Shown: in pieces, positions 577 through 31,771 of the stretch | Numbering within the stretch: the first letter of the stretch is position 1 | Layout of the letters: each line of letters starts with the position of its first letter | NCBI GenBank assembly: GCA_020724945.1 | Contig: DYFX01000003.1 | Coordinates: 1-36,223 of the forward strand | Origin: Candidatus Paceibacter sp. | Lineage (GTDB): Bacteria; Patescibacteriota; Patescibacteriia; SG8-24; DYFX01 | Reading direction: 5' to 3' | DNA: 36,223 nt | Position numbers and translations under genes: made by a program | The notes under the pieces: generated by a model | What the model saw: only the letters and a program-made list of their open reading frames with translations | What the model was told of the DNA's origin: nothing | Database searches by the model: none

Positions 577-642
577 ACGATCCGGCCGGAAGTGCTAGCT
601 TCGTAAGGAGTCCTTTTCACCGACCGTACGAAGGAGGAAACC
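573..642 (+). promoter_or_regulatory. sigma70 promoter, boxA-like element and SD of accessory gene
   Basis: TTGAAC(573, overlaps tsaE stop)-17-TAGCTT(596) with extended TG; GTCCTTTTCAC at 610; AGGAGG at 632. Confidence 0.6.
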
Positions 643-2172
643 ATGGGCAAGTACCTGCGGATCAAGAACCGCGGGGAGTGCCCGCGGCTCTATCTGACCC
701 TGCTCGGAGCGACGACCAAGGGCGACAGGATGGACGACCCGTCCCAGGGCGGATGGTTCGGCTCGGGGACGAAATTCGCCCCCGTGGCCGCGCTCAACCT
801 GGGCATCAGCGTCGCCGTCGCCTCGCGCGACGAGGGAGGCCGGTACTTCATCCAGTACCTCGCCGAGAAGCGCAAGCTGCCGGGCAAGACGATCAAGCAG
901 ATCGTCCTGCGCACCACCCTGCCGGATCGGAGCTTCGTCACGCGCGATACGCCGTTCACGCTCGACGCCTGCAAGAACTGGAAGGAGCCGATCGGCGACG
1001 ACGGCATGAAGGCCTTCCGCGTCCTGCGCGAGTACCTGCGCAACGCCGTCGATGCGGATCCGCAAGGCTACGCGATCGAGGAGTGCGACGAGCTCCAGTG
1101 GCCGCCGGAGGGATGGACCTATGTCTACCTCTCGGTGTCGGCGGAGATCCGCGCGATGCTGGCGGCCCCCGCCCGCTACTTCAAGTATGTCGCGCCGGAG
1201 CGTAATCCGCCGCCGCTCGCGTACTTCAAGAACGGCGCGGCCTACGCCCGCTCCGATCCGGAGCGCACGCGCCTCTTCTCGCTCGGCACGCTAGCCTTCT
1301 GCAGCGCGCACCCCCGGTATCGGGCGCGCTATGACTACAGCGTCGACGTGAAGACCGGTACCCAGGGACGCCCGCTCCTCGCCGAGGAACGGACCTTCTC
1401 GGACATGAGCCTGGTCTACTGCGAGGTCAAGAAGATGCTCGCGGCCTGGAAGGATGTCGCCGCGCTCACCGGACTGATCACGGCCATGATCGACGGCGAC
1501 GCCTCGTTCGAGGCGGAAGCGATGGGGTATCTGGACAACACGCCCAAGCTCCTCGCCGCCGCGCCGGAGTGGCTCGCCGCCTGGCGACGGGCCTACGGCG
1601 ACGACGCCGTCATCTCCTCGAACCCGTACGCGGACGAGCTCGCGCGCTACAGCTTCCGGAAGACCTCCGTGACCGTCCTGCAGCAGGGCGTCCGAAGCTT
1701 CCTGAAGGCCTGCGGCGTCCCCGAAGCCGCCGAGTGCATCCCGGGGATGGTCGTGGGACAGGAATACCGCCCCGTCGCCGACCTCGAGGATTGGGAACGC
1801 GAGCGCCTGGCGATCGCGTGCGCCATCATGCACGAGGAGTTCCCCGAATCGAAGGGCTTCGCGCTCTGCGTCTACGAGCCGATGACGGAACGGATGAAGC
1901 CGACCCTCGGCTTCGCCCGCTACGACACGGCCCAGCCCATCCTCTTCGTGCAGCGCGCCTGCATCCGCTCGTGGGACACCCTGATCGCGACGCTCGTCGT
2001 GCACGAGTGCCGCCACGCCCGCACCAAGGTCGACGACACCAAGCGCGACTTCATCGACCGGGCGGACCGCGACCTCGCGGACCTGCTCATCGAGAAGCAC
2101 GGCCTCGAGCACGAGCCCGAGGTGAGGCCGGAGGACATCAGCCTGCCCTCCGTCATCGTCGCGAAACCGTAA
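643..2172 (+). CDS. Permuted GHKL-type ATPase with C-terminal HEXXH zincin-like motif (hypothetical protein)
   Basis: LRIKNRGE, LGATTK and GWFGSGTK precede REYLRNAVDA; VHECRH near the C-terminus; strong SD. Confidence 0.6.
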   Translation: MGKYLRIKNRGECPRLYLTLLGATTKGDRMDDPSQGGWFGSGTKFAPVAALNLGISVAVASRDEGGRYFIQYLAEKRKLPGKTIKQIVLRTTLPDRSFVTRDTPFTLDACKNWKEPIGDDGMKAFRVLREYLRNAVDADPQGYAIEECDELQWPPEGWTYVYLSVSAEIRAMLAAPARYFKYVAPERNPPPLAYFKNGAAYARSDPERTRLFSLGTLAFCSAHPRYRARYDYSVDVKTGTQGRPLLAEERTFSDMSLVYCEVKKMLAAWKDVAALTGLITAMIDGDASFEAEAMGYLDNTPKLLAAAPEWLAAWRRAYGDDAVISSNPYADELARYSFRKTSVTVLQQGVRSFLKACGVPEAAECIPGMVVGQEYRPVADLEDWERERLAIACAIMHEEFPESKGFALCVYEPMTERMKPTLGFARYDTAQPILFVQRACIRSWDTLIATLVVHECRHARTKVDDTKRDFIDRADRDLADLLIEKHGLEHEPEVRPEDISLPSVIVAKP

Positions 2173-2204
2173 ACCCCGCACCTTCCGGTGCGGGGTCTTT
2201 TCGT
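2173..2204 (+). terminator. Intrinsic terminator between convergent genes
   Basis: ACCCCGCACC-TTCC-GGTGCGGGGT followed by CTTTTCGT. Confidence 0.8.
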
Positions 2205-2206
2205 CT

Positions 2207-3919
2207 CTATTCCGCGGCGGCGAGCACCTCGTCGACCGTCGTGAGGCCGTCGAGCGCCTTCAGGATGCCGTCCTGCGCCATCGTGACCATGCCCTGCTTC
2301 ACGGCGAGCTCCTGCATCTGGTACTCGGAGACGTTGCCCGTGAGGAGCAGCTTCTCGATCTCGGGGCTCATGGTGAAGATCTCGTAGATGCCCAGCCGGC
2401 CCTTGTAGCCGGAGTCGCCGCAGGTCTTGCAGCCCTTGCCCTTGTAGAACTTGGCGGCGTCGAGGTCCGGCTTCTCGCCGGCGTCGGGCGAGAGCGTCGC
2501 CATGATGTCCTTCACCTTCTTCAGCTGCTCCGGCTCGAGCTTCACCTCCTCCTTGCAGTCCTTGCAGATGCGGCGCACCAGGCGCTGTCCGATGACGGCG
2601 TTCAAGGCCGGCGCGAGGAGGAACGGCTTCACGCCCATCGAGAGGAAGCGCGGGATGGCGCCAGCCGCGCTGTTGGTGTGGATGGTGGAAATCATCAGGT
2701 GGCCGGTGAGCGCCGCTTGGATGGCGGTCTCGGCCGTCTCGAGGTCGCGGATTTCGCCGACCATGATGACATCCGGGTCCTGGCGCAGGATGGCGCGCAG
2801 GCCCTTGGCGAAGGTGTAGTCCTTGGAGAGATCGATGGGGGATTGGTTGATGCCCTCCAGGCTGTATTCGACCGGGTCTTCGAGCGTGATGATCTTCGTC
2901 TCCGCGTCGTTGAGCTTCTTCAGCGTGGCGTAGAGCGTGGTCGTCTTGCCGGAACCGGTCGGACCGGTCGTGATGATCATGCCGTTGGGGCGTTCCACCT
3001 GCGCCTTGAGCTGTTCGTACGCCTTGCCGCGGATGCCGAGATCGTCGAACGACAGGCCGATGGTCGAGGGCTTGAGGAGGCGCATCACGACGGATTCGCC
3101 GTAGGAAGTCGGGATGGTCGAGACGCGGACCTCGGTCTTCTTGCCGCCGATGAAGATGGTGAAGCGCCCGTCCTGCGGGATGTTGTTGACGTTGATCTTC
3201 AGCGCGGAGAACAGCTTGATGCGCGAGATGATGCGCGGCCAGACATCCTTGCCGAGGCGGGCGGCGTCCTGGAGCACGCCGTCGATGCGGTAGCGCACCA
3301 CGACATCCTTCTCCTCGGCCTCGATGTGCATGTCCGAGGCGTCGCCCTTGAGCGCGCCCGCGATGATGATGGTGACGGCGTCGGTGATGTCGGCGCCCTT
3401 CATCATGGCGTCCAGGTCCTTGAAGGACGCCATCTTGTCCTGGTACTTCTTCAGGTCCGCTTCGGTGATCTCGACGCCTTTCACGATCTTGCGGATCTTG
3501 GGGAGCGTGTCGTAGAGCTTCATGGCGTGGGCGAAGCTCTCCTCGGAGATGATGTACATCCCGACATTGGCGCGCGCCCGTTCGCCGACCTGATAGGCGG
3601 CTTCCTTCACCTCCGCGCGCCCCGGGTCGACGGAGGCGATGCGCACCTCGTCGCCGGTCTGCAGGAAGACGACCGTCTTGAGCTCCTTGGCCTGCTCCTG
3701 CGAGAGGAGCACGAGCGCCTCGGGCGAGATGGGGAAGCCTTTCAGGTTGATGTAGGAGACGCCCAAAAGCTGCCCGCGCTTGGCGGTCTCGCGCTCCTTG
3801 GCCTGCAGATCGAGCTCGCGCATCTTGGCGGAGAACTTCTCCTGCGCGTCCGGGGACGCGATGCTCGGCAGCTTCGATTTCTTCAGCAGGTCGTCGATCG
3901 TGGGATTGTCTCCAGGCAT
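2207..3919 (-). CDS. pilB: Type IV pilus / type II secretion assembly ATPase (PilB/GspE family)
   Basis: ASDMHIE, PQDGRF, GPTGSGKTTT, EDPVE, RQDPD, GEIRD, STIHTN and two CxxC motifs. Confidence 0.9.
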   Translation of the reverse strand: MPGDNPTIDDLLKKSKLPSIASPDAQEKFSAKMRELDLQAKERETAKRGQLLGVSYINLKGFPISPEALVLLSQEQAKELKTVVFLQTGDEVRIASVDPGRAEVKEAAYQVGERARANVGMYIISEESFAHAMKLYDTLPKIRKIVKGVEITEADLKKYQDKMASFKDLDAMMKGADITDAVTIIIAGALKGDASDMHIEAEEKDVVVRYRIDGVLQDAARLGKDVWPRIISRIKLFSALKINVNNIPQDGRFTIFIGGKKTEVRVSTIPTSYGESVVMRLLKPSTIGLSFDDLGIRGKAYEQLKAQVERPNGMIITTGPTGSGKTTTLYATLKKLNDAETKIITLEDPVEYSLEGINQSPIDLSKDYTFAKGLRAILRQDPDVIMVGEIRDLETAETAIQAALTGHLMISTIHTNSAAGAIPRFLSMGVKPFLLAPALNAVIGQRLVRRICKDCKEEVKLEPEQLKKVKDIMATLSPDAGEKPDLDAAKFYKGKGCKTCGDSGYKGRLGIYEIFTMSPEIEKLLLTGNVSEYQMQELAVKQGMVTMAQDGILKALDGLTTVDEVLAAAE

Positions 3920-3958
3920 CGTTGCGTGTCGTTCCCGCGAGCGCGGGGAACCCGTACC

Positions 3959-4978
3959 TTACTTCAGGAACCGGTCGAACCAGCGGGCGAGCTTGGACCT
4001 TCCGGCATGGCCGCGCTGATGGAGCTTGGTGAAGAGGTGCACCCAGACCGCGTACTGGAACGAGGCGAGGAGGCCGCCGATGAGCGCGAGGAAGAGCACG
4101 GCCGCCAGGCCGGCGAGCGCGAGGATCACGGCCACGCCCACGCCGCCTTCGATCAACGAGGCGCCGACGAGCAGCGGCAGGAGCACGATGCCGGCCACGA
4201 CGGTGGCCGCGCCGATGCCCAGCGCGGCCAGCAGGTTCACGGCGAAGAGCGCGAGCGCCGTCTCGATGCTGATGAGCCAGTACTTGCGGAAGAGCGCGAC
4301 GGCGGACTCGATGGCGGCGATGACCGGCAGGCGCTGCAGCGTGACATAGCAGGCGGCGTAGATCGTCACGAAGCCGATGATGAGGGTGAGGGGGATGAGG
4401 AGGACGAAGCCGGCCAGGTAGGAGAACGAGCTCCAGAAATTGGCGTCGGCGAGATACAGCACCGTGAGCGACAGCATCAGGTAGAAGAAGGCCAGCGTCG
4501 CCAGGCGCGCGAGGAGGTTCAGGACGAACAAGGGCCAGGCGACCTCGTTGCCGGCCGCGAAGAGCGAACCGAAGGCGGTCTTGCGCCCCCGTTCGGCGTC
4601 GCGGGCTCCGGCGATGAGCCCGCCTTGCGCGGACACCACCACCCAGACGGCCGCGGCCGCGATCCCGATGATCGTCAGCGCGGTCAGCAGGAAGATGACG
4701 ATGCCCTGCGCGCCCGCGGAGGCGAGCGCCTCGCCGATGCCGCCGGCGTCGAGCGCTTGCCAGAGGCCGAAGAAGCCTCCGAAGTCCTCGTCGAGGCCCA
4801 GGCGCCCCGTGCCTTGGACGAGGATCTCGTAGACCCCGCCGTTGCCGAGGAACGAGACGAAGAAGCCCAGAAGCCAGAGCGCCTTGTTCGCGCGCACCGT
4901 CTTCCAGGCGTCCGCCAGGATGTGGCGGTAGAACGCGCCGGTCGGTTTGGTCATATTTCCTCCGCGTGAGTCAAACAT
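3959..4978 (-). CDS. Multi-pass membrane protein of unknown function
   Basis: About 7-8 hydrophobic segments. Start is either 4978 (9 nt after TATACT) or 4954 (after GGAGG). Confidence 0.75.
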   Translation of the reverse strand: MFDSRGGNMTKPTGAFYRHILADAWKTVRANKALWLLGFFVSFLGNGGVYEILVQGTGRLGLDEDFGGFFGLWQALDAGGIGEALASAGAQGIVIFLLTALTIIGIAAAAVWVVVSAQGGLIAGARDAERGRKTAFGSLFAAGNEVAWPLFVLNLLARLATLAFFYLMLSLTVLYLADANFWSSFSYLAGFVLLIPLTLIIGFVTIYAACYVTLQRLPVIAAIESAVALFRKYWLISIETALALFAVNLLAALGIGAATVVAGIVLLPLLVGASLIEGGVGVAVILALAGLAAVLFLALIGGLLASFQYAVWVHLFTKLHQRGHAGRSKLARWFDRFLK

Positions 4979-5019
4979 AGTGCCCTAAGTATACAGGATT
5001 CCCGAGCGCCTGCCCACGC

Positions 5020-5086
5020 TTGACCGCGGCGCGGCGCGCTGGTAGGGTGAACCGTCGTCACTCGCGACGGCAGGAAGGCGTCAGGC
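5020..5086 (+). promoter_or_regulatory. sigma70 promoter and leader of accessory gene
   Basis: TTGACC(5020)-17-TAGGGT(5043) with extended TG; short leader hairpin; AGGAAGG at 5072. Confidence 0.6.
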
Positions 5087-5932: not shown

Positions 5933-5963
5933 ACCGCGCCGCTCCCGGCCGGTCTTTTTCGTT
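5931..5963 (+). terminator. Intrinsic terminator
   Basis: AGACCG..GCCG-CTCC-CGGC-CGGTCT followed by TTTTCGT; starts within the TAG stop. Confidence 0.7.
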
Positions 5964-5973
5964 CCGCCTCCGC

Positions 5974-6031
5974 TTGACCTCGTCTCCATCCGCGGACTAG
6001 CGTGGAAGCAGGACCTTGAAAGGAGGCCGCC
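5974..6031 (+). promoter_or_regulatory. sigma70 promoter, boxA-like element and SD
   Basis: TTGACC(5974)-18-TAGCGT(5998); GGACCTTGAAA at 6011; AGGAGG at 6021. Confidence 0.6.
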
Positions 6032-6679
6032 ATGATCGATTGCGTCGATGCCATCGCCGTCCCGCAGGCGGTCACGCCCTTCGTCCGCCCGAGCGCCTCC
6101 ATCTTCACCGTCGAAGGCGGGAAGGTCCGGATGCATGTCGTCCGCGGACGCGACGAGGCGCTGCGCGTCATCGCCGAAAAGCGCGCCCAGACCCGCGACG
6201 AACGCTATCGGCTGTGCCTCGACATCGTCGAGGCGTCCATGCTGCCGGAGCGCGCCGACGCCCCGACCGTCTCCATCGCGCCATGCGCCGCCGTCCTGCA
6301 GATGCTGGAAGCGACCTACGCGGTGATGCCGGAACTCGATCGGGTCGAGGATCTCGTCTATGCCGACGCGCCCGGCCTCGACGCCTTCCGTCTGCCGCGG
6401 TCGCCGGAAATCGATTCCGGGTATGCCGTCGTCCGCACGCGGACGGGCCCTCTGCTCGAGGTGTTCCATACGCGCGCGCACGCCTTCGCGTTCGCGGAGC
6501 GCCACGACGCGTTGTTCAGCGAGGACGACCGGCGTCTCATCGACGAGGCGTTCGGCGCGAGTCCGCTCGACGACCGATCCGTGCGCGCCTCCGAGGCCTT
6601 CGGAGGCTTCGCCGCCGCCGTCATCGGCGCCCACGACCGCCTCTTCCGCCTCCTCCGCGCCGCGGCCATCCGCCGCTGA
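6032..6679 (+). CDS. Hypothetical protein with apparent internal duplication
   Basis: Strong SD and own terminator; two similar ~100-aa halves. Confidence 0.7.
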   Translation: MIDCVDAIAVPQAVTPFVRPSASIFTVEGGKVRMHVVRGRDEALRVIAEKRAQTRDERYRLCLDIVEASMLPERADAPTVSIAPCAAVLQMLEATYAVMPELDRVEDLVYADAPGLDAFRLPRSPEIDSGYAVVRTRTGPLLEVFHTRAHAFAFAERHDALFSEDDRRLIDEAFGASPLDDRSVRASEAFGGFAAAVIGAHDRLFRLLRAAAIRR

Positions 6680-9874: not shown

Positions 9875-9934
9875 TTGACGCGGCGCCGGAATCGGGGTAG
9901 AGATGGGCGCAGTCCCTTCCACCGCGAGGTTCCG
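9875..9934 (+). promoter_or_regulatory. sigma70 promoter, boxA-like element and SD
   Basis: TTGACG(9875)-17-TAGAGA (imperfect -10); GTCCCTTCCAC at 9912; GAGGT SD. Confidence 0.5.
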
Positions 9935-15478: not shown

Positions 15479-15544
15479 GCCCTCCCTTGCGCGGAGGGCC
15501 TTTTTTCGTCTAAGGTGCGGGCAGTTCCTTGGAAGGAGGCCGTC
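15477..15544 (+). terminator. Terminator overlapping the next promoter, boxA-like element and SD
   Basis: AGGCCCTCC-CTTGCGC-GGAGGGCCT followed by TTTTTCGT; TTGCGC(15487)-18-TAAGGT(15511); GTTCCTTGGAA at 15524; AGGAGG. Confidence 0.7.
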
Positions 15545-16960: not shown

Positions 16961-16994
16961 ATGTACTTTCAGTGAGGTAACGCGTCAGCCCTTT

Positions 16995-17513
16995 ATGTCC
17001 AACCGCCATCTCGCCCGGACCGTCGCCATGCAAACCCTGTATGAACGGGATTTTCACGGCGGCAAGATGGAAGATCCCGACGCCGCCTGCGCGCGCAACT
17101 TGGAAGAGTTCGCGCCTGGCCTCGACGACAAGGGCTTCGCCAAGGAGCTCGTGGTCGGCGTGTTGAAGCATCAGAAGGACATCGACGCGACCATCACCAA
17201 GTACGCCCCTGCGTGGCCGTTGCCGCAGATCACGATCGTCGATCGGAACATCCTCCGTATCGGCGTTTTTGAACTCAAGCATTCGGACACCGTCCCCTCC
17301 AAGGTCGCCATCAACGAGGCCATCGAGATGGCCAAGACCTTCGGCGGCGAATCCTCCGGCAAGTTCGTGAACGGCGTCCTCGGCGCCATCTTCAAGGACA
17401 TGATCGCGAGCGGCTCCATCAAGGAGGTCGACAAGCAGGAACCGAAGAAGAAAGAGGAGGGCGACGAGGCGGACAAGAAGGAGGAAAAGGCTCCTGCCGC
17501 CGAAGAGTCCTGA
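16995..17513 (+). CDS. nusB: Transcription antitermination factor NusB
   Basis: [35 protein letters not shown]. Confidence 0.96.
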
Positions 17514-19399: not shown

Positions 19400-19432
19400 A
19401 AGAGGCCCGGACATCCCGGGCCTCTTGCTTTT
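19400..19432 (+). terminator. Intrinsic terminator after pilT
   Basis: AAGAGGCCCGG-ACATC-CCGGGCCTCTT followed by GCTTTT. Confidence 0.75.
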
Positions 19433-19488
19433 GACGCGGAGGCGGCAGGCGGGTAGGGTAGAGCCGCTCTTTCCACCTGGAGGTCCGC
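19431..19488 (+). promoter_or_regulatory. sigma70 promoter, boxA-like element and SD
   Basis: TTGACG(19431)-17-TAGGGT(19454); GCTCTTTCCAC at 19466; GGAGGT at 19479. Confidence 0.7.
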
Positions 19489-20697
19489 ATGCGCCGCTTC
19501 ATCGCTTTGACCGCCCTCGCGTTCGCCGCCTGCGGCGACAACGACCGCCTTTCCGACCCGATCGACATGGTCTATCGCGTCACCGTCACGGAGTTGGAGG
19601 ACAGCTGCGACGACGGCTCCCTGGCGGGGCCCGAGACCGCCTTCGTCGACGCGCGCCTGCATGCCGACGGCACGGTCGAGCTGGTCGAGCGCAGCCTCTG
19701 GATCCCCGGACCCGGAGCGTACCCGTCCATCCGCGTGCACGGCGGCGTCGTCGACTACGACGCCCAGCGCGCGTCGGCCTACACCGAGAAGGTGTTCCCA
19801 TACCATATCGGAGGGACGCTCACGACGGAGGCGATGGACCTGACGCTCACGGAGCATTGGTACCGCCAGCCGGATTTCACCGACTGCGTGCGCATCGTGC
19901 GCATGCGGGGCGCGCCGCGCGGGTTCCTCGATCCCGCGGACCTCGACGGCATCTACGAGATCGATGTCGCCTATTACGGCGAGATCTGCGGAAGCGATCC
20001 GCTCCCGTCCGTCCCGGAGGGCCGCCAGGTCCTCCTGCTCGACGCCGATCCGCGCCCTGACACGCTGACGCTGTGGATCGAGTCGTACATCGGCATGAAC
20101 GCCGATCTTCCCGGCGGCGACGGCCGCATCGACTGGGACGGTCCGATGACCGTCTCGACCATCGAAGGCTATGTCGGGACGACCGGCGGCCTGCACGGCC
20201 GGTTCGGACCCGCCGAGGTCGACGCCGAACTGTCGTTCCGCCTCCCGGGACAGGCGGCGGACTGCGCGTATCGCTACGCGCTCACGGGCGCCAAGCGCCC
20301 GTCGACCGCGACGGAGCCGCAAGGCGACTACCGCGTCGTCTTCCGCGTCCGCGACGGCTGCGAAGGCCGCACCGAGACGCGCGAGTCCCATGTCACGCTC
20401 GTCCGCCAGCGCGCCGACCTCATGGAAGTCCGCGACAGCTTCGGCCTCTGGTTCATCCCGATCGACGGCGACGCCCTTTCCGCGACCGATTCCGGACCGG
20501 GCGTCGTCGCGACCTTCGAAGGCGCGGCGACGCCGCCGTACCTCTCGTACACCGTCGCGTTCACCTACGGCGAAGGCGCCGACGCCTGCACCTACGCCTG
20601 GGATGTCGACGGCGTCGCCCGCTACCATCCGCACGAGCCGTGGGAACCCGCCTTCCCGCCCGATCCGACCCGCACCGCGCCCGACCTCGACCCGTGA
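19489..20697 (+). CDS. Putative lipoprotein with three tandem beta-rich repeats
   Basis: MRRFIALTALAFAA-C lipobox; three ~120-aa repeats with two Cys each. Confidence 0.75.
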   Translation: MRRFIALTALAFAACGDNDRLSDPIDMVYRVTVTELEDSCDDGSLAGPETAFVDARLHADGTVELVERSLWIPGPGAYPSIRVHGGVVDYDAQRASAYTEKVFPYHIGGTLTTEAMDLTLTEHWYRQPDFTDCVRIVRMRGAPRGFLDPADLDGIYEIDVAYYGEICGSDPLPSVPEGRQVLLLDADPRPDTLTLWIESYIGMNADLPGGDGRIDWDGPMTVSTIEGYVGTTGGLHGRFGPAEVDAELSFRLPGQAADCAYRYALTGAKRPSTATEPQGDYRVVFRVRDGCEGRTETRESHVTLVRQRADLMEVRDSFGLWFIPIDGDALSATDSGPGVVATFEGAATPPYLSYTVAFTYGEGADACTYAWDVDGVARYHPHEPWEPAFPPDPTRTAPDLDP

Positions 20698-21040: not shown

Positions 21041-21605
21041 CGGAATACGGACGGAGGATGCGGAGGACATCTTGGATGCAGTCTTCCAGGTATCCGTGCC
21101 GGTTCGTGACGACATGATCGCACTCGACGGCGGCGGCGATCTCGCCGGGGGCGGCGGCCAGGCGCTTCGCGATGTCCTCCTCCTTCATCGGCGGGACGCG
21201 GGCGCGGAGGCGCGGCTCGAGGTCCCCGAAGTCGCCGGGCCTGATGAAGATCGCCACGGCTTCGGGCATCAGCTTCTTGATGATGCGGGCGCCCTGGATC
21301 TCGACGATCTTGATGGCGAGGGGAGAGGCTTCCAGCGCGCGTCGGAGGCCGGAACGCGAGGTCCCGTACCAGTGCTGCGAGTACTGTGCGTGCTCGAAGA
21401 AGTCGCCTTCCGCGGCCTTCCGCTGGAACTCCTCGCAGGAGAGGAAGTGCATGTCGACGCCGGGCGTCTCCTTCGTGCGCGGGGCGCGGCAGGTGGTGGA
21501 GAGCACATGGATGGCGTCGGGACGCCGCGCGAGCACCTCCGCGAGGACGGAGCTCTTGCCGACCGCGGTCGGCCCGATGATCAGGACGAACGTTCCGATC
21601 GGCAT
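21030..21605 (-). CDS. gmk: Guanylate kinase
   Basis: IIGPTAVGKS P-loop, STTCRAPR, E..GVDMHF, F.EHA.Y..HWYGT. Confidence 0.88.
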   Translation of the reverse strand: MPIGTFVLIIGPTAVGKSSVLAEVLARRPDAIHVLSTTCRAPRTKETPGVDMHFLSCEEFQRKAAEGDFFEHAQYSQHWYGTSRSGLRRALEASPLAIKIVEIQGARIIKKLMPEAVAIFIRPGDFGDLEPRLRARVPPMKEEDIAKRLAAAPGEIAAAVECDHVVTNRHGYLEDCIQDVLRILRPYSETA

Positions 21606-21642
21606 GGCGGCCTCCTTTCAATGAGCCGCCAGGAGCTTACCA
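21606..21642 (-). promoter_or_regulatory. Extended -10, boxA-like element and SD of gmk
   Basis: TGG-TAAGCT; GCTCATTGAAA (21626-21616); AGGAGG. Confidence 0.6.
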
Positions 21643-21644
21643 CA

Positions 21645-21673
21645 TTGAATTCCCGTCCTGATTCCGCTACACT
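21645..21673 (+). promoter_or_regulatory. sigma70 promoter divergent from gmk
   Basis: TTGAAT-17-TACACT. Confidence 0.65.
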
Positions 21674-21685
21674 GTGGACAAGTCT

Positions 21686-25805: not shown

Positions 25806-25812
25806 ATTCCCG

Positions 25813-25898
25813 AAGGCGGCCTTGACTGAAGGCCGCCTTTTTGGTTCAGTGGACGCAGTCTCGCCCTTCCGACCCGATCCACCTGCCAGGAGGATACG
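25813..25898 (+). terminator. proS terminator overlapping the promoter and leader of the next gene
   Basis: AAGGCGGCC-TTGACTGAA-GGCCGCCTT followed by TTT; TTGACT-17-TTCAGT with TG; GCCCTTCCGAC at 25863; AGGAGG at 25888. Confidence 0.65.
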
Positions 25899-26177: not shown

Positions 26178-26216
26178 ACGCAAAACGCCCCAGCATCGTC
26201 GGAGCGTCTTTTCTTT

Positions 26217-26501
26217 TTACGCCTTGCCCTTCAGCGAGTCCTTGAGCGTCTTTCCGGCCTTGAACTTCGGGACGCGGACTTCGGGGATGGTGATCTTCTC
26301 GGTGGGGTTCTGCGGGTTCACGCCCATGCGCGAGGCGCGCGTGCGGGCGGAGAAGGCGCCGAAGCCGGCGATCGTGACCTCGCCGCCGTTCTTGAGCTCG
26401 GCGATGATGAGGTCCGTCAGCGTCTCGACGATCTCTTCGCCGCGCTTCTTGGGGAGGTCGAGCTTCTCGGCGAGCTTCACGGCCAATTCGGCTTTGTTCA
26501 T
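26217..26501 (-). CDS. hup: HU family DNA-binding protein
   Basis: MNKAEL, GFGAF, R.GVNPQ, VPKFKAGK.LK. Confidence 0.96.
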   Translation of the reverse strand: MNKAELAVKLAEKLDLPKKRGEEIVETLTDLIIAELKNGGEVTIAGFGAFSARTRASRMGVNPQNPTEKITIPEVRVPKFKAGKTLKDSLKGKA

Positions 26502-26505
26502 ATGT

Positions 26506-27306: not shown

Positions 27307-27312
27307 ACGGGT

Positions 27313-28842
27313 CTAGCGCGCGTATTCGATCGCGCGCATCTCGCGGATGACGTTGATCTTGATCTCGCCGGGGTACTGGAGCTCCTGCTCGCACTTCTTG
27401 GCGATGTCCTTGGCGAGCTGCCAGGCGCCGAGGTCGTCGATGCGCTGGGGGGAGACGAAGACGCGGATCTCGCGGCCGGCCTGGATGGCGTAGGCGCGGT
27501 CGACGGCTTCGAAGGAGGTGGCGACCTTCTCGAGGTCCTCGAGGCGCCGGACATAGTTCTCGAGCGTGTCCTTGCGGGCGCCGGGGCGCGATCCGGAGAT
27601 GGCGTCGGCGGCCTTGCAGAGGTAGCCCTCGATGTTGCGCGGCCGGTCCTCGTGGTGCGAGAGCGAGTGGTAGGCGATCTCCTCGGGGAAGCCGAACTTC
27701 TTCATGATGTTGTAGCCGATCTCCGGGTGGGCGCCGGGGACATCATGGTCGACGGCCTTGCCGACATCGTGGAAGAGCCCGCCCTTGAGCAGGACCGCGG
27801 CGTCGGCGCCGACTTCCTTGGCGAGGAAGTTGCCGATCAGCGCGACCTCGATGGAGTGGCGCAGGACATTCTGGCCGTAGGAGGTGCGGTACTTCAGGCG
27901 GCCGAGGATGGAGATGAGCTTGGGGTCGACCGAGCCCAGCGGGATGCCGCACTCGATCATGGCGTCCTCGCCGGCCTTCTTGATGTCGAGCGCGAGCGTG
28001 CGCTTGGCCTCCTCGATGGCCTCCTCGATCTTGGTCGGCTGGATGCGGCCGTCCTTGATGAGGCTCTCGAGCGCGAGGCGGGCGACCTGGCGGCGGATGG
28101 GGGAGAAGCCGGAGACCGTGATGGCGTTCGGCGTGTCGTCGACGATGATCTCGGTGCCGGTCAGCTGCTCGAGCGACTTGATGTTGCGGCCCTCCTTGCC
28201 GATGATGCGGCCCTTCATGTCGTCGGAGGGGAGCTGGACCTGGGTCGTGGTCGTCTCGGCGCAGTGCGAGGAGGCGACGCGGGAGATGACGGCGGAGAGG
28301 ATGTTGCGGGCCTTCGTCTCGTACTCGTCGGTGCCGGCGCGCTCGATCTTGCGGATGCGCGAGAGGATCTCGTCCTGGGCCTCGTCCTCGATGGCCTTGA
28401 AGAGCTGCTCCTTGGCGACTTCGCGGGGGAGTTCGGCGACCTTCTCGAGCTTCTCGCGCATGTCCGCCTTGAGCCGCTCGATCTCGGCCTTGGCGGCCTC
28501 GATCTCCTTGGCATGCTCGTCGCTCTTCCGGGTCTTCTCCTGGAGCTCGAGAAGCTGCTTGTCGAACATCGATTCGCGCTTCTCGAGGCGCTGCTGGACG
28601 GCGTTCAGCTCCTTGCGGCGCTCGGCCTCGTCGCGCTTGGCCTCGTCGAGCATCTGGACGGACTTCTTCTTGGCCTGGAGCTCGATCTCCTGGGCCTTGG
28701 CCTTGGCGTCGTTCACGGTCGCCTCGGCCTTGGCTTCGGCGGACGCGATCTTGTCGGCGGTGACTTTCTTTTGGATGTAATAGCCGGCGCCCAGACCGAC
28801 CGCCAAGGCGGCCAGGGCGAGGAGCAACAACGGGACGGACAT
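27313..28842 (-). CDS. rny: Ribonuclease Y
   Basis: N-terminal TM, coiled coil, KH domain (KGRIIGKEGRNI), HD domain (HDVGK), AIQAGRE. Confidence 0.97.
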   Translation of the reverse strand: MSVPLLLLALAALAVGLGAGYYIQKKVTADKIASAEAKAEATVNDAKAKAQEIELQAKKKSVQMLDEAKRDEAERRKELNAVQQRLEKRESMFDKQLLELQEKTRKSDEHAKEIEAAKAEIERLKADMREKLEKVAELPREVAKEQLFKAIEDEAQDEILSRIRKIERAGTDEYETKARNILSAVISRVASSHCAETTTTQVQLPSDDMKGRIIGKEGRNIKSLEQLTGTEIIVDDTPNAITVSGFSPIRRQVARLALESLIKDGRIQPTKIEEAIEEAKRTLALDIKKAGEDAMIECGIPLGSVDPKLISILGRLKYRTSYGQNVLRHSIEVALIGNFLAKEVGADAAVLLKGGLFHDVGKAVDHDVPGAHPEIGYNIMKKFGFPEEIAYHSLSHHEDRPRNIEGYLCKAADAISGSRPGARKDTLENYVRRLEDLEKVATSFEAVDRAYAIQAGREIRVFVSPQRIDDLGAWQLAKDIAKKCEQELQYPGEIKINVIREMRAIEYAR

Positions 28843-28848
28843 AGGGTG

Positions 28849-29030
28849 ATAGTCCGTCGCTCCGATCCTGGTTGTTCGAGCGTCGAAAAGCCGGAAAGCC
28901 TTAGGCTTTCTTCTGTGCGCGCGCGGATTCTCTCATTTCTACCGGAAACTGGGGCAAAAGTCGCATGGGGGTGGGGCGCAGCTCTTCGGGCTCAACCGGG
29001 ACGGAACGAGCGGATCGCTAATGATGAACT
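28849..29030 (-). ncRNA. ~180-nt rod-shaped structured RNA upstream of rny; candidate 6S RNA or rny leader
   Basis: Promoter TTGCCG-17-TATGGT with extended TG; long interrupted complementarity between 29014-28981 and 28891-28853, with G-U pairs valid only on the minus strand. Confidence 0.55.
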
Positions 29031-29081
29031 GGTTCGACCATATCACGGGGAGGTGCCTCCGGCAAGGTGTATACTGCCCCC

Positions 29082-30590
29082 ATGATGAAACGCCCGTATT
29101 CGCTGGTCTTCGCGCTTTCCGCCGCCTTTTTCGCGTGGATCCACTTCGTTCCGGGCTTCGGCGACCCCGACGCCTACTACCATCTGCGGATGACGCGCCT
29201 GACGATGGAGTCCGGGCCCGTCGCGGCCTTCCCGTGGCTGCCGCAGACCACGCTCGCCGACGCGTTCGCCGACCATCACTTCCTCTATCACATCGCGCTC
29301 GCGCCCTTCCTCGCCGCGTTCGGGGATTTCCACGGAGCGAAGATCGCCACGGTCGTCTTCGCGGCGCTCGCGGTCGTCGCCGTCGCATACCTCCTGAAGG
29401 GCTATGGCGTGCGGCGGCCGCATCTTTGGGCGCCGCTCCTGTTCTTCGCTCCGGGATTCGTCTTCCGGCTGCTGCTCACCAAGGCCACCGCGCTCGCGCT
29501 CGCCGCGCTCTGCCTCTTCCTCGTCGCGCTCCGGCGCCGGCATCGCGGCGCGGCGTTCGCGATCGCCTTCGCGTATGTCTGGCTGCATGGCGGGTGGCCG
29601 CTCCTTCTCGTGGCCGCTGCGATCGACGCGCTCGTGCGCCGCTCGGCGCGGATGTTCGTCGCGACCGCGCTCGGATCGGCGGCCGGACTCGTCCTGAACC
29701 CGTTCTTTCCGGCGAACCTCCTCTTCTACGGCGAGCAGATCCTGCAGATCGCCGTGCTCGGGCGCCCCGATCCCGCCGTGCTCGTCGGCGACGAGTGGTA
29801 TCCGCGCGAGTTCGCGACGATCTTCATCGGGAACATCGGCGCGTTCCTGCCGATGCTCGCCGCCGCGGCCGCCGCGGCCGCCGCCGTGCTGACCGGCGCG
29901 CGCCCGCGCCCCGTGCGCGTCGACCTGTCGCGGCGCTTCGACATGCTTTTCGCCGGATCGTTCGCCGCGATCCTGCTGCTCATGACGCTCCGCCAGGCGC
30001 GGCATCAGGAGTACCTCGTGCCGATGGCCCTCCTCGCCGGCGCGCTCGTCGCGGAGACGGCGCTCGCCGCCATCGACCTGCGCGCGCTCGCCGCGCGGGC
30101 GAAGGCGCGGTTCGGCCGCGCGGCCGTCCCGGCGACGGCGGCGCTCGTCGTGGCGTGCGCGGCCGCCGCCGTCTGGCTGCTCTGGATCCCGCGCCGTTCC
30201 TACGAGGATCGTCCGCCGGCGTCGCGGTACGCCGATGCCGGCGCTTGGGTGCGCGCACATGTGCCGGCGGGGGAGACGATCTTCCACGCGCGCTGGGACG
30301 ATTTCCCCCAGCTCTGGTACCGCTCTCCGGAGCATCGCTACATCGCCGGCCTCGACGCGCTCTTCTCCTACCGCAAGGATCCGGCGAAGTACTGGCTCTG
30401 GCGCGACATCGGCGAAGGCCGCCGCCGCGAAGGGCTGGCCGAGCTGATCGTCGAGGAGTTCGGCGCGCGGCATGTCTTCCTGCGCATGGGCCCCGACCCG
30501 CTCCGTTCGCTCATCAAAAAAGACCCGTCGTTCGAACGGGTCTACGCGGACATCGAGGCGGAGGTCTGGAGGATCAGAGACGCACGATGA
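29082..30590 (+). CDS. GT-C fold membrane glycosyltransferase, STT3/AglB-like
   Basis: More than 10 TM segments; DPDAYYHLR after TM1; DEW in a loop; ARWDDFP in the C-terminal soluble domain; start ATG 6 nt after TATACT. Confidence 0.65.
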   Translation: MMKRPYSLVFALSAAFFAWIHFVPGFGDPDAYYHLRMTRLTMESGPVAAFPWLPQTTLADAFADHHFLYHIALAPFLAAFGDFHGAKIATVVFAALAVVAVAYLLKGYGVRRPHLWAPLLFFAPGFVFRLLLTKATALALAALCLFLVALRRRHRGAAFAIAFAYVWLHGGWPLLLVAAAIDALVRRSARMFVATALGSAAGLVLNPFFPANLLFYGEQILQIAVLGRPDPAVLVGDEWYPREFATIFIGNIGAFLPMLAAAAAAAAAVLTGARPRPVRVDLSRRFDMLFAGSFAAILLLMTLRQARHQEYLVPMALLAGALVAETALAAIDLRALAARAKARFGRAAVPATAALVVACAAAAVWLLWIPRRSYEDRPPASRYADAGAWVRAHVPAGETIFHARWDDFPQLWYRSPEHRYIAGLDALFSYRKDPAKYWLWRDIGEGRRREGLAELIVEEFGARHVFLRMGPDPLRSLIKKDPSFERVYADIEAEVWRIRDAR

Positions 30591-30960
30591 GCGTCACGAC
30601 GCCGGAGCGGCGCGCCTCGTCGTGCCAGCGCCAGGCGCGCTCGCAGTCGAGGCCGCGCATGGCCAGGTAGCCGGCGCAACAACCCCAGACGGCGGCCGCC
30701 ACATCGGCGGAAAGGTCGTCGTCCTTGGTGTCGACGAGATCGATCGTCGCGCGGTCGGCGCCGTCGAGGACCGCGTCGCGCAGGCCATCGAACACGCGAT
30801 CGAGGTAGGGGACGGCGAAACCGTTCCCCGCCTTCTCGAACTCCGCGGGCGCGTCGTCGCGCAGGGGCTTGAGGTGAAGCTCGACTTCCTTGGCGAGCTT
30901 GGCGCGGACCGATCGGCAGCCGTTGCGGATGCCCGTGAGCGTCGTGCGGATCTGCGGCAT
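30574..30960 (-). CDS. Hypothetical protein
   Basis: Own promoter TTGACG(31033)-17-TACGCT with extended TG, and AAGGAG SD. Confidence 0.65.
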   Translation of the reverse strand: MPQIRTTLTGIRNGCRSVRAKLAKEVELHLKPLRDDAPAEFEKAGNGFAVPYLDRVFDGLRDAVLDGADRATIDLVDTKDDDLSADVAAAVWGCCAGYLAMRGLDCERAWRWHDEARRSGVVTLIVRL

Positions 30961-31033
30961 GAAGGATCTCCTTGTCGTCCGGGTGATCCGGAAAGCGACG
31001 CAGGAGCGTAGCAGGGATCCGCCGCCGCGTCAA

Positions 31034-31699
31034 TCAGGGCGTGAAGAGGCGTTCCGGCGCGACGCCTTCTTTCGTCACCGCGTCCTTCACGTCGAAGCTC
31101 CCGATGCGCGTGCGCCGCAGTTCCTCCAGGTACGCGCCGCAGCCGAGCGCCCTGCCGATGTCGTCTGCGAGCGCGCGGATGTAGGTGCCGCTCGAGACGC
31201 GCGTGCGGATCTTGGCGATGGGCCAGGCGTAGTCGGCGAGCGAGAGCTCGTGGATCGTCACGCGGACGGGTTTCCGCTCGATTTCCTTCCCCTCGCGCGC
31301 CAGTTCATACAATTTCTTGCCGCCGACCTTCTTGGCGGAGTACATCGGCGGCACTTGGTCGATCTCGCCGCGGAACTTTTCCAGCGCGGCTTCGAACGCC
31401 TCGCGGGAAACCGGCGCGCAATCCTTTCGTTCGGTGACGGCGCCCGTGCGGTCCATCGTGTCGCTCGTCGCGCCGAGGCGGAGCGTCGCTTCGTAGGTTT
31501 TGTCGAGGCCGACGAACCGGGAAATCTCCTTCGTCATCTTCCCGACGGCCAGGATGAGGAGTCCTGAAGCGAACGGATCGAGCGTTCCCGCGTGGCCGAT
31601 CTTCCGGGTGCGCAAAACGCGCCGCGCGGCGTCGACGATGTCGTGCGAGGTCGGGCCGACGGGCTTGTCGATCAGCAGGAATCCGGAGGGGGCGTCCAT
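31034..31699 (-). CDS. truB: tRNA pseudouridine(55) synthase TruB (short form)
   Basis: IDKP.G.TSHD, KIGHAGTLDP, QVPPMYSA, SSGTYIR, L.ELRRT. Confidence 0.96.
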   Translation of the reverse strand: MDAPSGFLLIDKPVGPTSHDIVDAARRVLRTRKIGHAGTLDPFASGLLILAVGKMTKEISRFVGLDKTYEATLRLGATSDTMDRTGAVTERKDCAPVSREAFEAALEKFRGEIDQVPPMYSAKKVGGKKLYELAREGKEIERKPVRVTIHELSLADYAWPIAKIRTRVSSGTYIRALADDIGRALGCGAYLEELRRTRIGSFDVKDAVTKEGVAPERLFTP

Positions 31700-31702
31700 A
31701 GG

Positions 31703-31771
31703 TTGACAATCTGGGATTTCGTGCTAGGTTGAGCTTAGTCCGCCCCGCCCTTTCAGACAACAGGAGGCCCC
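31703..31771 (+). promoter_or_regulatory. sigma70 promoter, boxA-like element and SD
   Basis: TTGACA-16-TAGGTT with extended TG; GCCCTTTCAGA at 31747; AGGAGG at 31762. Confidence 0.6.

Follow-up and report, generated by a model that had tools for sequence, protein, structure and literature searches.

Judged from sequence comparison, on which the whole interpretation rests, the short pyrimidine-rich box heading many Shine-Dalgarno (SD)-led genes of this Patescibacteria genome is a real 5'-terminal leader element. We consider it an RNA element with which short primary transcripts begin, and whose core G-Y-Y-C-Y-U-U may be a boxA-type site for NusB-S10 (S10 being NusE). To this reading we assign a probability of roughly 45%. 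An initial annotation of the window, a stretch of 36,223 nucleotides, had described boxA-like 11-mers ahead of accessory genes. That observation holds and extends genome-wide.

Box sites in the window

All eight 11-mers of the initial annotation were found where it had placed them, and the six main ones follow a −10-like hexamer by 8, 7, 8, 7, 6, and 7 nt, in agreement with the 6-8 nt it had given. Box GTCCTTTTCAC (610-620, + strand) lies 8 nt past the −10 TAGCTT (596-601) in the promoter of gene 643-2172 (573-601, +; −35 TTGAAC at 573-578, 17-nt spacer), and is followed by GGAGG at 633-637 and the ATG at 643. The TTGA and a TGCTAGCGT-type −10 of this promoter are kept in 12 genus genomes. Box GGACCTTGAAA (6011-6021, +) is 7 nt past TAGCGT in the promoter of gene 6032-6679 (5974-6003, +; TTGACC, 18-nt spacer), with GGAGG at 6022-6026 and ATG at 6032. 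The hexamer preceding GTCCCTTCCAC (9912-9922, +) by 8 nt is an imperfect −10, TAGAGA (9898-9903); GAGG (9926-9929) and ATG (9935) follow. The gene of a DAGK_cat-like kinase (ATG 15545) has GTTCCTTGGAA (15524-15534, +) 7 nt past TAAGGT (15511-15516) and GGAGG at 15535-15539. Gene 19489-20697 is preceded by a promoter at 19431-19459 (+; TTGACG, 17-nt spacer, TAGGGT), by GCTCTTTCCAC 6 nt further on (19466-19476, +), and by GGAGG at 19479-19483 ahead of the ATG at 19489. On the − strand, GCTCATTGAAA (21616-21626) lies 7 nt past TAAGCT (21639-21634), with GGAGG at 21615-21611 and the ATG of guanylate kinase (gmk) at 21605.

The annotation had rated two further copies as weaker, and both indeed fail the full 11-mer. 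GCCCTTCCGAC (25863-25873, +; GGAGG 25889-25893, ATG 25899) fails GYYCYTT at position 7. GCCCTTTCAGACAACA (31747-31762, +) lies 17 nt past TAGGTT, with GGAGG at 31763-31767 and ATG at 31772, and is the most rrn-like of the window copies (CYTT, 2 nt, GACAAC). Its gene encodes a 296-aa protein directly upstream of infB. The proposed consensus GYYCYTTNNAM is exact in four of the six main sites, whereas 6011 (GGACCTT) and the − strand site at 21626 (GCTCATT) deviate. As noted before, nusB is kept in the window (16995-17513). The statement that no motif precedes SD-less core genes was nearly right, but it missed GCCCTTT at 16988-16994 (+), which adjoins the ATG of nusB, a gene without an SD.

Counting within the window alone does not separate the motif from chance. 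There are five 11-mer matches against 2.05 expected, with 5 of 100 shuffles reaching five, and 33 matches to the 7-mer GYYCYTT against 25.9 expected. The signal resides in position and genome-wide context, not in window counts.

Genome-wide position of the box

The genome that holds the window (G000) has a size of 1.07 Mb and 66% GC. About 70% of its genes have no SD, many of them seemingly leaderless, and the SD-led genes are its fast-evolving, patchily conserved class. The 11-mer occurs at −50 to −5 of 23 of 219 SD-led genes versus 3 of 629 others (Fisher p=1.5e-11), these genome-wide gene counts coming from a crude gene caller that scored candidate starts partly by SD. The relaxed 7-mer GYYCYTT lies within 40 nt upstream of 44/219 SD genes (about 5 expected) versus 13/623 non-SD genes, nusB and rpsJ being among the 13. 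For SD-led leaders with a clear promoter, the CYTT of the full form G-Y-Y-C-Y-T-T-S-N-A starts 8-15 nt past the −10 in 34 of 63, as compared with 5 of 45 leadered non-SD promoters (p=4.7e-6).

The box is invariably on the sense strand. Its distance from the −10 is tight, with a peak at 10-13 nt (6-13 nt after −10 hexamers seen), whereas the SD follows at anything from 2 to 24 nt (usually 5-8, median 7). Operon-internal SDs mostly have no box (2/25 versus 70/176, p=0.0014), and by-eye inspection upstream of 41 tRNA genes found no consistent motif. The earlier placement at about +1 to +10 of SD-led accessory genes stands on predicted promoters, but the box appears anchored to the transcript start, not to the SD.

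The 'accessory' label was borne out. A homologue in the same-genus genome G003 (tblastn, at least 50% coverage) was found for 20/44 motif-bearing and 81/175 other SD genes, as against 138/160 and 379/463 for the non-SD genes. Even gmk, core-like by function, was found in just one of the 12 other genomes of the genus. Among 20 motif genes scanned outside the window, eight had a Pfam match, several of nucleotide-salvage types (uridine kinase/PRK, pyrimidine 5'-nucleotidase-like HAD, NUDIX); gmk in the window is another.

This promoter-linked placement raises a DNA-level reading, in which the box belongs to the initially transcribed region as a repressor operator over +1, a NusG- or sigma-dependent, promoter-proximal pause signal of the non-template strand, or a nucleotide-sensitive start. 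C/U-rich nucleotide-sensitive starts are known at pyrC and pyrBI, and NusG pausing offers a parallel. The tight −10 distance against the variable SD distance fits such an element, as do the absence from operon-internal SDs, the nucleotide-salvage genes including gmk, and the location of the rpsJ box of other genera inside a promoter spacer. However, the placement relative to the promoter is inconsistent, being +3 to +9 at accessory genes and about −29 to −20 at rpsJ of those genera, and the genus nusB and rpsJ boxes touch the ATG with no promoter nearby. The box is also asymmetric and short, unlike typical operators, and only about half of the copies have a T-run of three or more. Because tRNA promoters show no box and leadered non-SD promoters seldom have one (5/45), it is not a general promoter feature. 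We regard a DNA-level element as improbable.

Conservation and pairing potential of the leaders

The orthologous leaders of gene 643 vary in their flanks but keep G[CT]CCTTT[CT]CA[AC]C in 11/12 genus genomes. At gene 15545, 5/9 orthologous leaders of the genus have a CYTT-type box (GTTCTTT, GTCCTTT, or ACCTT) past the −10. At gene 19489, G[CT]TCTTTC (GTCTTTT in G001) lies 6 nt past the −10 in five of six orthologous leaders, and YCCTT(T)NNGACAAC is found in all four at gene 31772.

Could the box have no function of its own and simply reflect promoter-leader cassettes that accessory genes inherited from a common ancestor or copied from one another, or else composition, with a pyrimidine-rich segment before a purine-rich SD? 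Near-identical leaders do exist. The stretch CCTTGAAAGGAGGCCGCCATG at 6011 has an identical copy at C86:13204-13224, and its close variants occupy three or more further loci; the stretch at gmk is near-identical to it. The promoter and leader of gmk recur almost unchanged in G012, despite a protein identity of only 59%. Box abundance is also clade-specific. But orthologous leaders with diverged flanks, whose genes encode proteins of 33-69% identity, still carry the box, reversing the pattern leaves 5 matches versus 52, and the positional peak is sharp. Of the explanations weighed here, we find this the hardest to credit.

The abundance differs strongly within the genus. In G003 the box is rare (7/80 SD promoters versus 4/55 non-SD), and any regulon would thus be clade-specific. 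Counts of CCTT-SD-ATG are high in G000, G012, and G005 (52, 66, and 49), whereas the other nine genomes have 8-22. These three are the genomes with GCCCTTT at rpsJ.

The initial annotation had also considered a pyrimidine-rich anti-SD. In this reading, CCUU(U) pairs with AAGG/GGAGG of its own leader, and the small 5' hairpin so formed would lower translation and perhaps protect the 5' end against nucleases. The pairing is feasible, since CCUUU can pair with GGAGG and CCUU with AAGG, and the usual 5-8 nt gap fits a hairpin loop. In 31/44 leaders, the MFE structure has at least 3 nt of the block paired to the SD region, and the probability of a paired SD is 0.72 versus 0.57 after shuffling of the 5' part (p=1.4e-4). 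The box at accessory genes accompanies SD-led genes only. However, the mean MFE of −4.7 kcal/mol was not below the controls (swapped 5' segments −5.2, reversed −4.75, random genomic −5.0), and RNAalifold predicted 0 conserved pairs in the 12 orthologous, box-conserving leaders of gene 643; these two results do not support a stable, conserved box-SD hairpin. Conservation reaches the G-Y-Y and the C-A past the T-run, positions dispensable for SD pairing, and the enriched words do not include the perfect anti-SD, CCTCC. The box is missing at operon-internal SDs, and the same core occurs at the SD-less nusB and rpsJ and in rrn leaders. An anti-SD mimic seems quite unlikely to us.

Likeness to boxA and copies at nusB, rpsJ, and rRNA genes

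In the site matrix (n=44), G is found in 31 sites, followed by two Y positions, C5 in 37, Y6 in all 44, and TT by definition. Eighteen sites fit GYYCYTT and nine fit GYTCYTT. At core position 4, which is U in canonical boxA, 25 sites have C and 11 have T. The pattern has G at −3, C at 0, and never A or T after the T-run. The information content of the motif is about 10 bits, so some likeness among pyrimidine motifs is expected.

A passage of PMC5725501 gives the boxA consensus as GYTCTTTAANA. Passages of PMC3177189 state that NusB/NusE recognise only the first 8 nt of BoxA and that G2, C5, and U6 are intolerant of transversion. Set beside these, GYYCYTT, the 7-nt core, amounts to a less strict version of the boxA core as those passages give it. 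The boxA likeness claimed by the annotation is partial: the core recurs at nusB, rpsJ, and rrn, but its position 4 is mostly C.

At nusB, G[CT]CCTTT(T)ATG is present in 13/13 genus genomes, the core adjoining the start codon. At the order level, GYYCYTT lies within 40 nt upstream of nusB in 17/28 genomes, compared with 1.9% expected and 1/28 for the reversed control. At rpsJ, which encodes S10 (NusE), G[CA][CT]CTTT-ATG was found in 11/11 genus genomes. Other genera have G[GA]TCTTT about 25 nt upstream in 15/17 genomes and GTTCTTT in one more. Their copy sits inside the spacer of a TTGACA-17-TAATCT leaderless promoter, so it would be in RNA only upon read-through from tuf. The match at secE-nusG corresponds to the 3' arm of a hairpin, with a T-run after it. 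By its location, the core at the nusB and rpsJ start codons is the pattern expected for Nus autoregulation.

CYTT(T) directly before the ATG occurs in 10/842 genes of G000, including nusB, rpsJ, rplU, and fusA, and the same four recur among 14/985 genes in G003. These genes link the box to translation and would suit a single-stranded pyrimidine box read by another translation or decay factor (S1, a cold-shock-type protein, or an RNase), serving as a standby/enhancer site or stability tag. S1 prefers pyrimidine-rich tracts upstream of SDs, and the window encodes both S1 (378 aa, four S1 domains) and RNase Y. Conservation of sequence without structure agrees with this as well. Yet G at −3, C at 0, and no A or T after the T-run exceed a generic U-rich preference. 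Another factor would also leave unexplained the anchoring at +1, the element common to both rrn leaders, and why nusB and rpsJ in particular carry it. We think such a factor unlikely.

The rRNA genes are unlinked, and both have an element in the leader. The 16S and 23S leaders share TCYTTGACAAC, which the box core overlaps; the copies are AGTCTTTGACAAC (16S) and ATCCTTGACAAC (23S) in G000, and GTCTTTGACAAT and ACCTTGACAAC in G003. When the box is compared with this rrn boxA, as the annotation had suggested, the likeness is partial. Only the CYTT-S-A part is shared, with CYTTSAM at 3.34 per kb in SD leaders versus 0.4-0.8. The full TCYTTGACAAC with up to two mismatches is unenriched, with one match in SD leaders (0.09 per kb versus 0.19-0.25 elsewhere). 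The GACAA half is in 4/4 rrn copies seen, whereas most mRNA copies have none, with only about four leaders, 31747 included, containing it. The rrn copies themselves do not have the G-Y-Y prefix. The core is found at the loci where Nus regulation would place boxA, namely the 16S/23S leaders, nusB, and rpsJ, the other-genera rpsJ copy being in a promoter spacer.

Nus proteins and a possible mode of regulation

The genome encodes NusB, NusA, NusG, and S10, with a single match to the NusG family. Two features of the Aquifex RNA-binding site, F122 and the stretch GKFVNGVL, are retained in its NusB. In the 94.9% complete genome, there were 0 Rho_RNA_bind matches for Rho and 0 Inositol_P matches for SuhB.

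If the box is a boxA-type Nus site, NusB-S10, alone or held by RNA polymerase with NusA and NusG, would bind the nascent 5' end. Since the box usually lies 5-8 nt before the SD and touches the AUG at nusB and rpsJ, bound NusB-S10 would impede the 30S subunit and reduce translation, as happens at suhB of E. coli. Steric occlusion is doubtful in the 8/44 leaders whose box is 16-24 nt from the SD. Because Rho was not found, the effect would fall on translation or mRNA life, not on Rho-dependent termination, and its direction could be repression or help. The output of about 40-60 accessory genes, nusB, and rpsJ would follow the NusB/S10 pool that is unengaged on rRNA. Since the box resembles the NusB/S10 site of rRNA, it may tie accessory-gene output to ribosome production. 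We know of no requirement of a Nus site for +1 placement.

The annotation had proposed Nus factors as a global switch or silencer on accessory mRNAs; we can only infer that they may act in this way. A broader proposal, which we hold to be doubtful, is that NusB-S10 has been recruited as a genome-wide regulator. The 5'-terminal boxA core would then mark about 40-60 SD-led accessory mRNAs (about 5% of genes) plus nusB and rpsJ, flexible-genome expression would track the Nus factor left from rRNA synthesis, and the regulon would have expanded recently in one clade with the rpsJ boxA change from GATCTTT to GCCCTTT. Such regulation may overlie the division into core genes, leaderless or without an SD, and accessory genes led by an SD.

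The classical settings of boxA and Nus factors are rRNA and phages, and to our knowledge only few cellular mRNA targets are known. If a boxA-type core truly heads a fifth of the SD-led genes and touches the nusB and rpsJ start codons, Nus factors could be a broad post-transcriptional regulator, and this in a genome with no Rho found. The sequences also suggest that this uncultured, host-dependent lineage expresses its genes in two clearly separated tiers, with core genes leaderless or SD-less and patchily conserved genes carrying promoter, box, and strong SD. This division would be relevant to gene calling, to spotting recently acquired genes, and to the tuning of accessory functions.

Comparison with known systems

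The closest known system is the rrn boxA of E. coli, read by NusB-NusE, NusA, and NusG in rRNA antitermination and rRNA folding. As there, the putative site would be a single-stranded box with a core close to G-Y-U-C-Y-U-U, of which NusB/NusE would read only 8 nt, a box is present in the leaders of both rRNA genes, and NusB, NusA, NusG, and S10 are encoded. Unlike there, the mRNA copies are mostly without GACAA, position 4 is mostly C, and the box lies at +1 of short mRNAs. With Rho and SuhB not found, there would be no Rho for antitermination to counter.

In suhB, according to a passage of PMC5725501, the boxA is 6 nt from its SD. The box analysed here is likewise a few nt upstream of the SD (median 7 nt), Nus-factor genes carry it (nusB, rpsJ), and a 30S-binding block is proposed in both. 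The suhB-type repression invoked by the annotation fits in spacing, but Rho and SuhB were not found, so its Rho-dependent step cannot apply and only the translational step could. The targets also differ, being accessory genes mostly of unknown function, and the nusB and rpsJ boxes touch the AUG of SD-less genes. A survey of boxA near starts gives 0-7 perfect matches per gamma-proteobacterial genome, whereas 44/219 SD genes have the relaxed 7-mer here.

SD-sequestering hairpins, such as anti-SD elements, fourU-type thermometers, and the pyrC leader, share a pairable pyrimidine block upstream of the SD in a short leader, with G-U pairs making the pairing weak. Unlike these, the box gives no stability gain and no conserved pairing, is fixed to the 5' end, and occurs also where there is no SD. 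RfaH/ops and other acquired-operon leader signals resemble the box as short 5' leader elements that mark accessory genes and recruit a general elongation factor. In the case of ops, the reader is a NusG paralogue and its substrate non-template DNA. The sequences are unrelated, and the genome has its single NusG-family match. The eukaryotic TOP motif, read by LARP1 on ribosomal protein mRNAs in another domain of life, is comparable by analogy only, as a pyrimidine tract at the transcript start of a gene set tied to the translation apparatus.

Position of the box at SD-led leaders

The initial annotation had described a boxA-like 11-mer at the transcription start of genes in the window, and all eight copies that it named are present at their coordinates. 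The six main copies start 6-8 nt after a TAnnnT-like hexamer (imperfect at the 9912 box, TAGAGA), with GGAGG or GAGG and then an ATG downstream. The proposed consensus GYYCYTTNNAM fits four of these six, with the boxes at 6011 and 21626(-) deviating, and it was reproduced by a position matrix of 44 sites of the source genome (G000) aligned on the end of the T-run. The successive positions of this matrix (n = 44) are G 31; T 17, C 15; C 25, T 11; C 37, T 7; T 26, C 18; T; T; C 29, G 12, A 3; any base; and A 28. Within the window, neither the 11-mer (5 matches against 2.05 expected, with 5 of 100 shuffles reaching 5) nor the 7-mer GYYCYTT (33 against 25.9 expected) is above chance, and support for the finding therefore comes from position and from the genome as a whole.

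The G000 assembly, whose contig C58:1-36223 is the window, has 1,069,756 bp in 91 contigs (94.9% complete, ~66% GC). Its TypA is 87-95% identical to TypA of Patescibacteria group and Minisyncoccota MAGs, with Candidatus Uhrbacteria more distant, and genome size is 0.7-1.6 Mb in all relatives at the genus, order, and class levels. Genes were called with a self-trained codon model and starts were picked by coding score, start codon, and Shine-Dalgarno (SD) sequence, a crude and SD-biased procedure; gene, start, SD, and promoter calls all come from our own simple scripts. Among 888 called genes, GGAGG lies at −17 to −5 in 123, a 4-mer SD in 101, AGGA only in 29, and none of these in 635. Strict promoters, defined as TTGACA (≤1 mismatch), a 16-18 nt spacer, and then TAnnnT, number 228, and 137 of them are ≤150 nt from a called start. 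The distance from the −10 to the start is bimodal, with 29 promoters at 6-10 nt (leaderless or nearly so) and a second group peaking at 27-32 nt.

In the 50 nt preceding GGAGG genes, CCTTT is 9.7 times as frequent as expected from the genome. The 11-mer is found at 14/122 GGAGG genes, 9/97 genes with a weaker SD, 0/29 AGGA genes, and 3/600 genes without SD; pooled, the counts are 23/219 for SD-led genes versus 3/629 for the others (p = 1.5e-11). Of 63 SD-led leadered promoters, 34 have CYTT starting 8-15 nt from the −10 (peaking at 10-13 nt), versus 5 of 45 leadered promoters without SD (p = 4.7e-6). In the 22 nt before the SD, it occurs at 2/25 operon-internal genes (same strand, ≤25 nt gap) versus 70/176 genes with a gap of at least 60 nt (p = 0.0014); the coding background is 6%. 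Because the box is rare at operon-internal SDs, remains near the −10 in longer leaders, has a variable gap to the SD (2-24 nt, median 7), and was not consistently seen by eye upstream of the 41 tRNA genes, we regard it as a marker of the predicted 5′ ends of primary transcripts that also bear an SD. A general start-site feature was rejected on the tRNA genes and on the rarity of the box at leadered promoters without SD. A DNA-level initiation element, for which the position next to the −10 would be the relevant property, has a small chance of being correct.

Conservation and abundance in related genomes

The box is retained in orthologous leaders of several window genes, among related genomes that are not independent samples. 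In 11/12 genus genomes, the leader of the gene with its ATG at 643 retains G[CT]CCTTT[CT]CA[AC]C, located 8-10 nt downstream of a conserved TGCTAGCGT-type −10. The sequence on either side of the box (8 nt upstream, 10-17 nt downstream) is variable, and the proteins are 33-69% identical. G[CT]TCTTTC is kept in 5/6 leaders of gene 19489, a CYTT-type box in 5/9 leaders of gene 15545, and YCCTT(T)NNGACAAC in 4/4 leaders of gene 31772. The promoter and leader of gmk are almost identical between G000 and its relative G012, with a protein identity of 59%. We consider it quite improbable that a box kept in this way has no function.

The intergenic region that separates gmk from the divergent DUF1059 gene (window 21606-21685) is nearly unchanged between G000 and G012. 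A leader and start of 21 nt, CCTTGAAAGGAGGCCGCCATG, is identical at two unrelated genes (window 6014-6034 and G000 contig C86:13204-13224), and near-identical copies lie at gmk (21605-21625(-)), at several other loci, and in the relatives G003, G005, and G010. The word GAAAGGAGG is complementary over 9 nt to the 16S 3′ end, CCTCCTTTC.

Abundance was counted with the pattern CCTT, 3-12 nt, GGAGG, 4-10 nt, ATG, which gave 52 matches in G000 (5 in the backwards control), 66 in G012, 49 in G005, and 8-22 in the other nine genus genomes. The promoter-anchored count in G003 is 7/80 SD promoters versus 4/55 promoters without SD. Judged by these pattern counts, the abundance of the box is clade-specific. 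A TTCC control pattern was discarded in favor of the backwards control because TTCC overlaps the motif (TTCCTT, CTTTCC) and is thus a poor control. Use of the relative G023 as a natural experiment was also rejected, its 132 TTCC..GGAGG..ATG matches being copies of an unrelated 22-nt palindromic repeat. This repeat, TTCCGGCTCGGAGGCCGGAATG, has ~110 dispersed copies on both strands and many contigs (L228-L257) and resembles a REP or MITE-type element.

Pairing of the box with the SD

The box could instead act as a cis anti-SD that pairs with the SD of its own leader. In the MFE fold, 31 of 44 leaders have the block paired to the SD region, and the probability that the SD is paired is 0.72, versus 0.57 after shuffling. 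However, the mean MFE of −4.7 kcal/mol shows no gain over 5′ segments of other genes (−5.2), reversed segments (−4.75), or random genomic segments (−5.0), and RNAalifold predicted not a single pair for the 12 leaders of gene 643. By the three energy controls and RNAalifold, the topology is present but adds no stability, co-adaptation, or conserved pairs; the hairpin model was dropped, and a cis anti-SD is improbable. The conserved entity according to these folding models is the sequence and not a structure. On the predicted starts and leader alignments, the box lies on the sense strand at the 5′ end of SD-led primary transcripts and is conserved and unstructured.

Genes led by the box

Pfam matches in the window include a T2SSE ATPase, FtsH, S1, GyrA, a DUF1189 protein, a DAGK_cat-like kinase, NusB, RNase III, guanylate kinase, a DUF1059 protein, TypA, a class II tRNA synthetase, YmdB, RNase Y, TruB, IF-2, and a thioredoxin-reductase-like protein; many other window genes are without a Pfam match. 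Homologues of G000 genes were sought by tblastn in G003, a complete genome of the same genus, at a coverage of at least 50%. They were found for 20/44 SD-led genes with the motif (median identity 41%), 81/175 SD-led genes without it (49%), 138/160 genes without SD at leaderless distance (71%), and 379/463 other genes without SD (73%). The label "accessory", first given to the box-led genes, holds in this comparison for SD-led genes as a class, and the motif adds nothing beyond it. The gmk gene was found in 1/12 other genus genomes (2/13 counting G000), and a first contig scan with gmk as the query found no relative.

Outside the window, 20 motif genes were compared with Pfam, and 12 gave no match. 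The remaining ones encode a uridine kinase/PRK-CYTH protein, two HAD hydrolases (one pyrimidine 5′-nucleotidase-like), and AIRS-like, AAA_18, NUDIX, ADP-ribosylglycohydrolase, and fatty-acid hydroxylase proteins. A link to secretion was dropped, with a signal- or TM-like N-terminal start in 10/44 motif genes versus 21-25% in other classes and no surplus of secreted proteins among motif genes. A gene for a 296-aa protein that matches no Pfam family occupies window 31772-32662, immediately upstream of infB and divergent from truB. The protein has high identity only in G012 (76%), and among the boxes of the window, the one in this leader is the most rrn-like.

G000 has a two-tier expression design of SD-less, conserved genes versus SD-led, weakly conserved genes. 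About 71% of called genes are without any SD-like 4-mer. In many of these, a TAnnnT hexamer precedes the ATG by 6-10 nt, with T at −1 in 78% of such cases, and conservation in G003 is high for SD-less genes at this leaderless-type distance. SD-led genes mostly come first in their unit (176 have a gap of at least 60 nt, versus 25 operon-internal) and are weakly conserved. In the window, genes 24537 and 32735 have the leaderless distance, and gene 22013 is leadered without SD. The literature that we found on leaderless or SD genes did not name Patescibacteria, which does not establish that the motif is absent from print.

Copies of the core at Nus-related and rRNA loci

GCCCTTT at window 16988-16994 abuts the nusB ATG, with no SD. 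G[CT]CCTTT(T)ATG is found at nusB in 13/13 genus genomes, and the remainder of the ~38-nt spacer after rpmF differs. In 17/28 order genomes, GYYCYTT occurs within the 40 nt that precede the nusB ATG, compared with 1.9% expected from the rest of the loci and 1/28 in the reversed control; outside the genus, the 7-mer is found in 5/16 and the 6-mer GYCYTT in 6/16. At the same distance, 13/623 non-SD genes of G000 have the 7-mer, including nusB, rpsJ, and the secE-nusG leader. At rpsJ, which encodes S10 (NusE), GCCCTTT-ATG is at contig C32:4070, and G[CA][CT]CTTT-ATG is found in 11/11 genus genomes. The form GCCCTTT is limited to G000, G012, and G005, the three genomes rich in the accessory-leader box. 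Other genera have G[GA]TCTTT ~25 nt upstream of rpsJ in 15/17, and one more (G024) has GTTCTTT; in those checked (G013, G019, and G020), the box is inside the spacer of a TTGACA-17-TAATCT promoter of a predicted leaderless rpsJ.

The match in the secE-nusG leader forms the 3′ arm of a hairpin with a T-run. This leader hairpin (G000 C76:500-586 and the corresponding G003 position) is followed by TTTTAAAAAAC, and its stem GGACCCC/GGGGTCC becomes GAGACCCC/GGGGTCTC in G003, a compensatory change; it may be a leader terminator or attenuator. The nusA leader (G000 C25, reverse strand, ~130-260) has a hairpin with the loop CCTTGAAA, a T-run, and TTAGCC at ~10 nt from the ATG; in many order genomes, words like TTAGCC or TAAGC also lie 8-12 nt before the nusB ATG. 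CYTT(T) abuts the ATG of nusB, rpsJ, rplU (L21), and fusA (EF-G) in both G000 and G003. At metK, a CYTT(T) block touches the ATG in G003, and GTCCCTT lies right after the −10 in G000.

The 16S and 23S rRNA genes are unlinked in G000 (C12:4245-5757(-) and C86:3688-6788(-); loci L001 and L091). The 16S leader carries AGTCTTTGACAACTTGATCGAGAGAATGA 6 nt after its second −10 (TATGAT), and this element pairs with the trailer as a processing stem. The transcript from the second promoter starts within ~30 nt that pair with the trailer immediately ahead of a terminator, which places the boxA-like element within the leader-trailer helix. The 23S leader carries AATCCTTGACAACTGAAGAC, and G003 has GTCTTTGACAATC and AACCTTGACAACTGAA at the places matching the 16S and 23S leaders. 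The rrn element of the lineage is therefore YCYTTGACAAY. A third G003 copy of TTGACAACTGAATAC, the 23S-leader element minus its CYTT part, lies at C1 ~829,480-829,560 (reverse strand), ~13 nt after a TTGACC-17-TATAGT promoter. The likeness of the box to boxA, asserted initially, extends to the core of the genome's own rrn element; the full element (≤2 mismatches) is not enriched in SD leaders, with 1 match. TCYTTGACAAC was dropped as a probe (≤2 mismatches) for this lack of enrichment, and it is also confounded because it contains the −35 hexamer TTGACA. GACAA follows the box in only ~4 leaders, the best being 31747.

Comparison with known boxA sites

We rank a NusB-S10 (boxA-type) site first among the readings of the box, at somewhat less than even odds (about 0.45), because the core corresponds, in a relaxed form, to the recognized half of boxA and recurs at rrn, nusB, and rpsJ. 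These are kinds of loci where boxA is known or predicted elsewhere. In an alignment to the Aquifex NusB of the ternary structure, F122 and GKFVNGVL are kept and E81 is replaced by D, and NusA and NusG are also encoded in G000. Rho_RNA_bind and Inositol_P (SuhB) had no match in this 94.9% complete genome. Binding of NusB-S10 to the candidate site would likely hinder 30S access, as at suhB, and the proposed effect in G000 would proceed without a Rho step. However, the GACAA half is missing from most copies, position 4 is mostly C, the anchoring at +1 is unexplained, the abundance is clade-specific, the rpsJ copy lies in a promoter spacer in other genera, and the motif is low in information. Recognition of the box by another RNA-binding factor is unlikely.

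The NusB-S10 reading can be set against characterized sites. The report on the NusB-NusE-BoxA structure describes only 8 nt as recognized, nothing past position 8 as mattering, and the changes G2U, C5A, and U6G as not tolerated (PMC3177189). A second report gives GYTCTTTAANA as the working boxA consensus of gamma-proteobacteria and places the suhB boxA 6 nt from the SD (PMC5725501). GYTCYTT fits 9/44 sites of the G000 matrix, and GYYCYTT fits 18/44. The core GYYCYTT is a relaxed form of the gamma-proteobacterial core.
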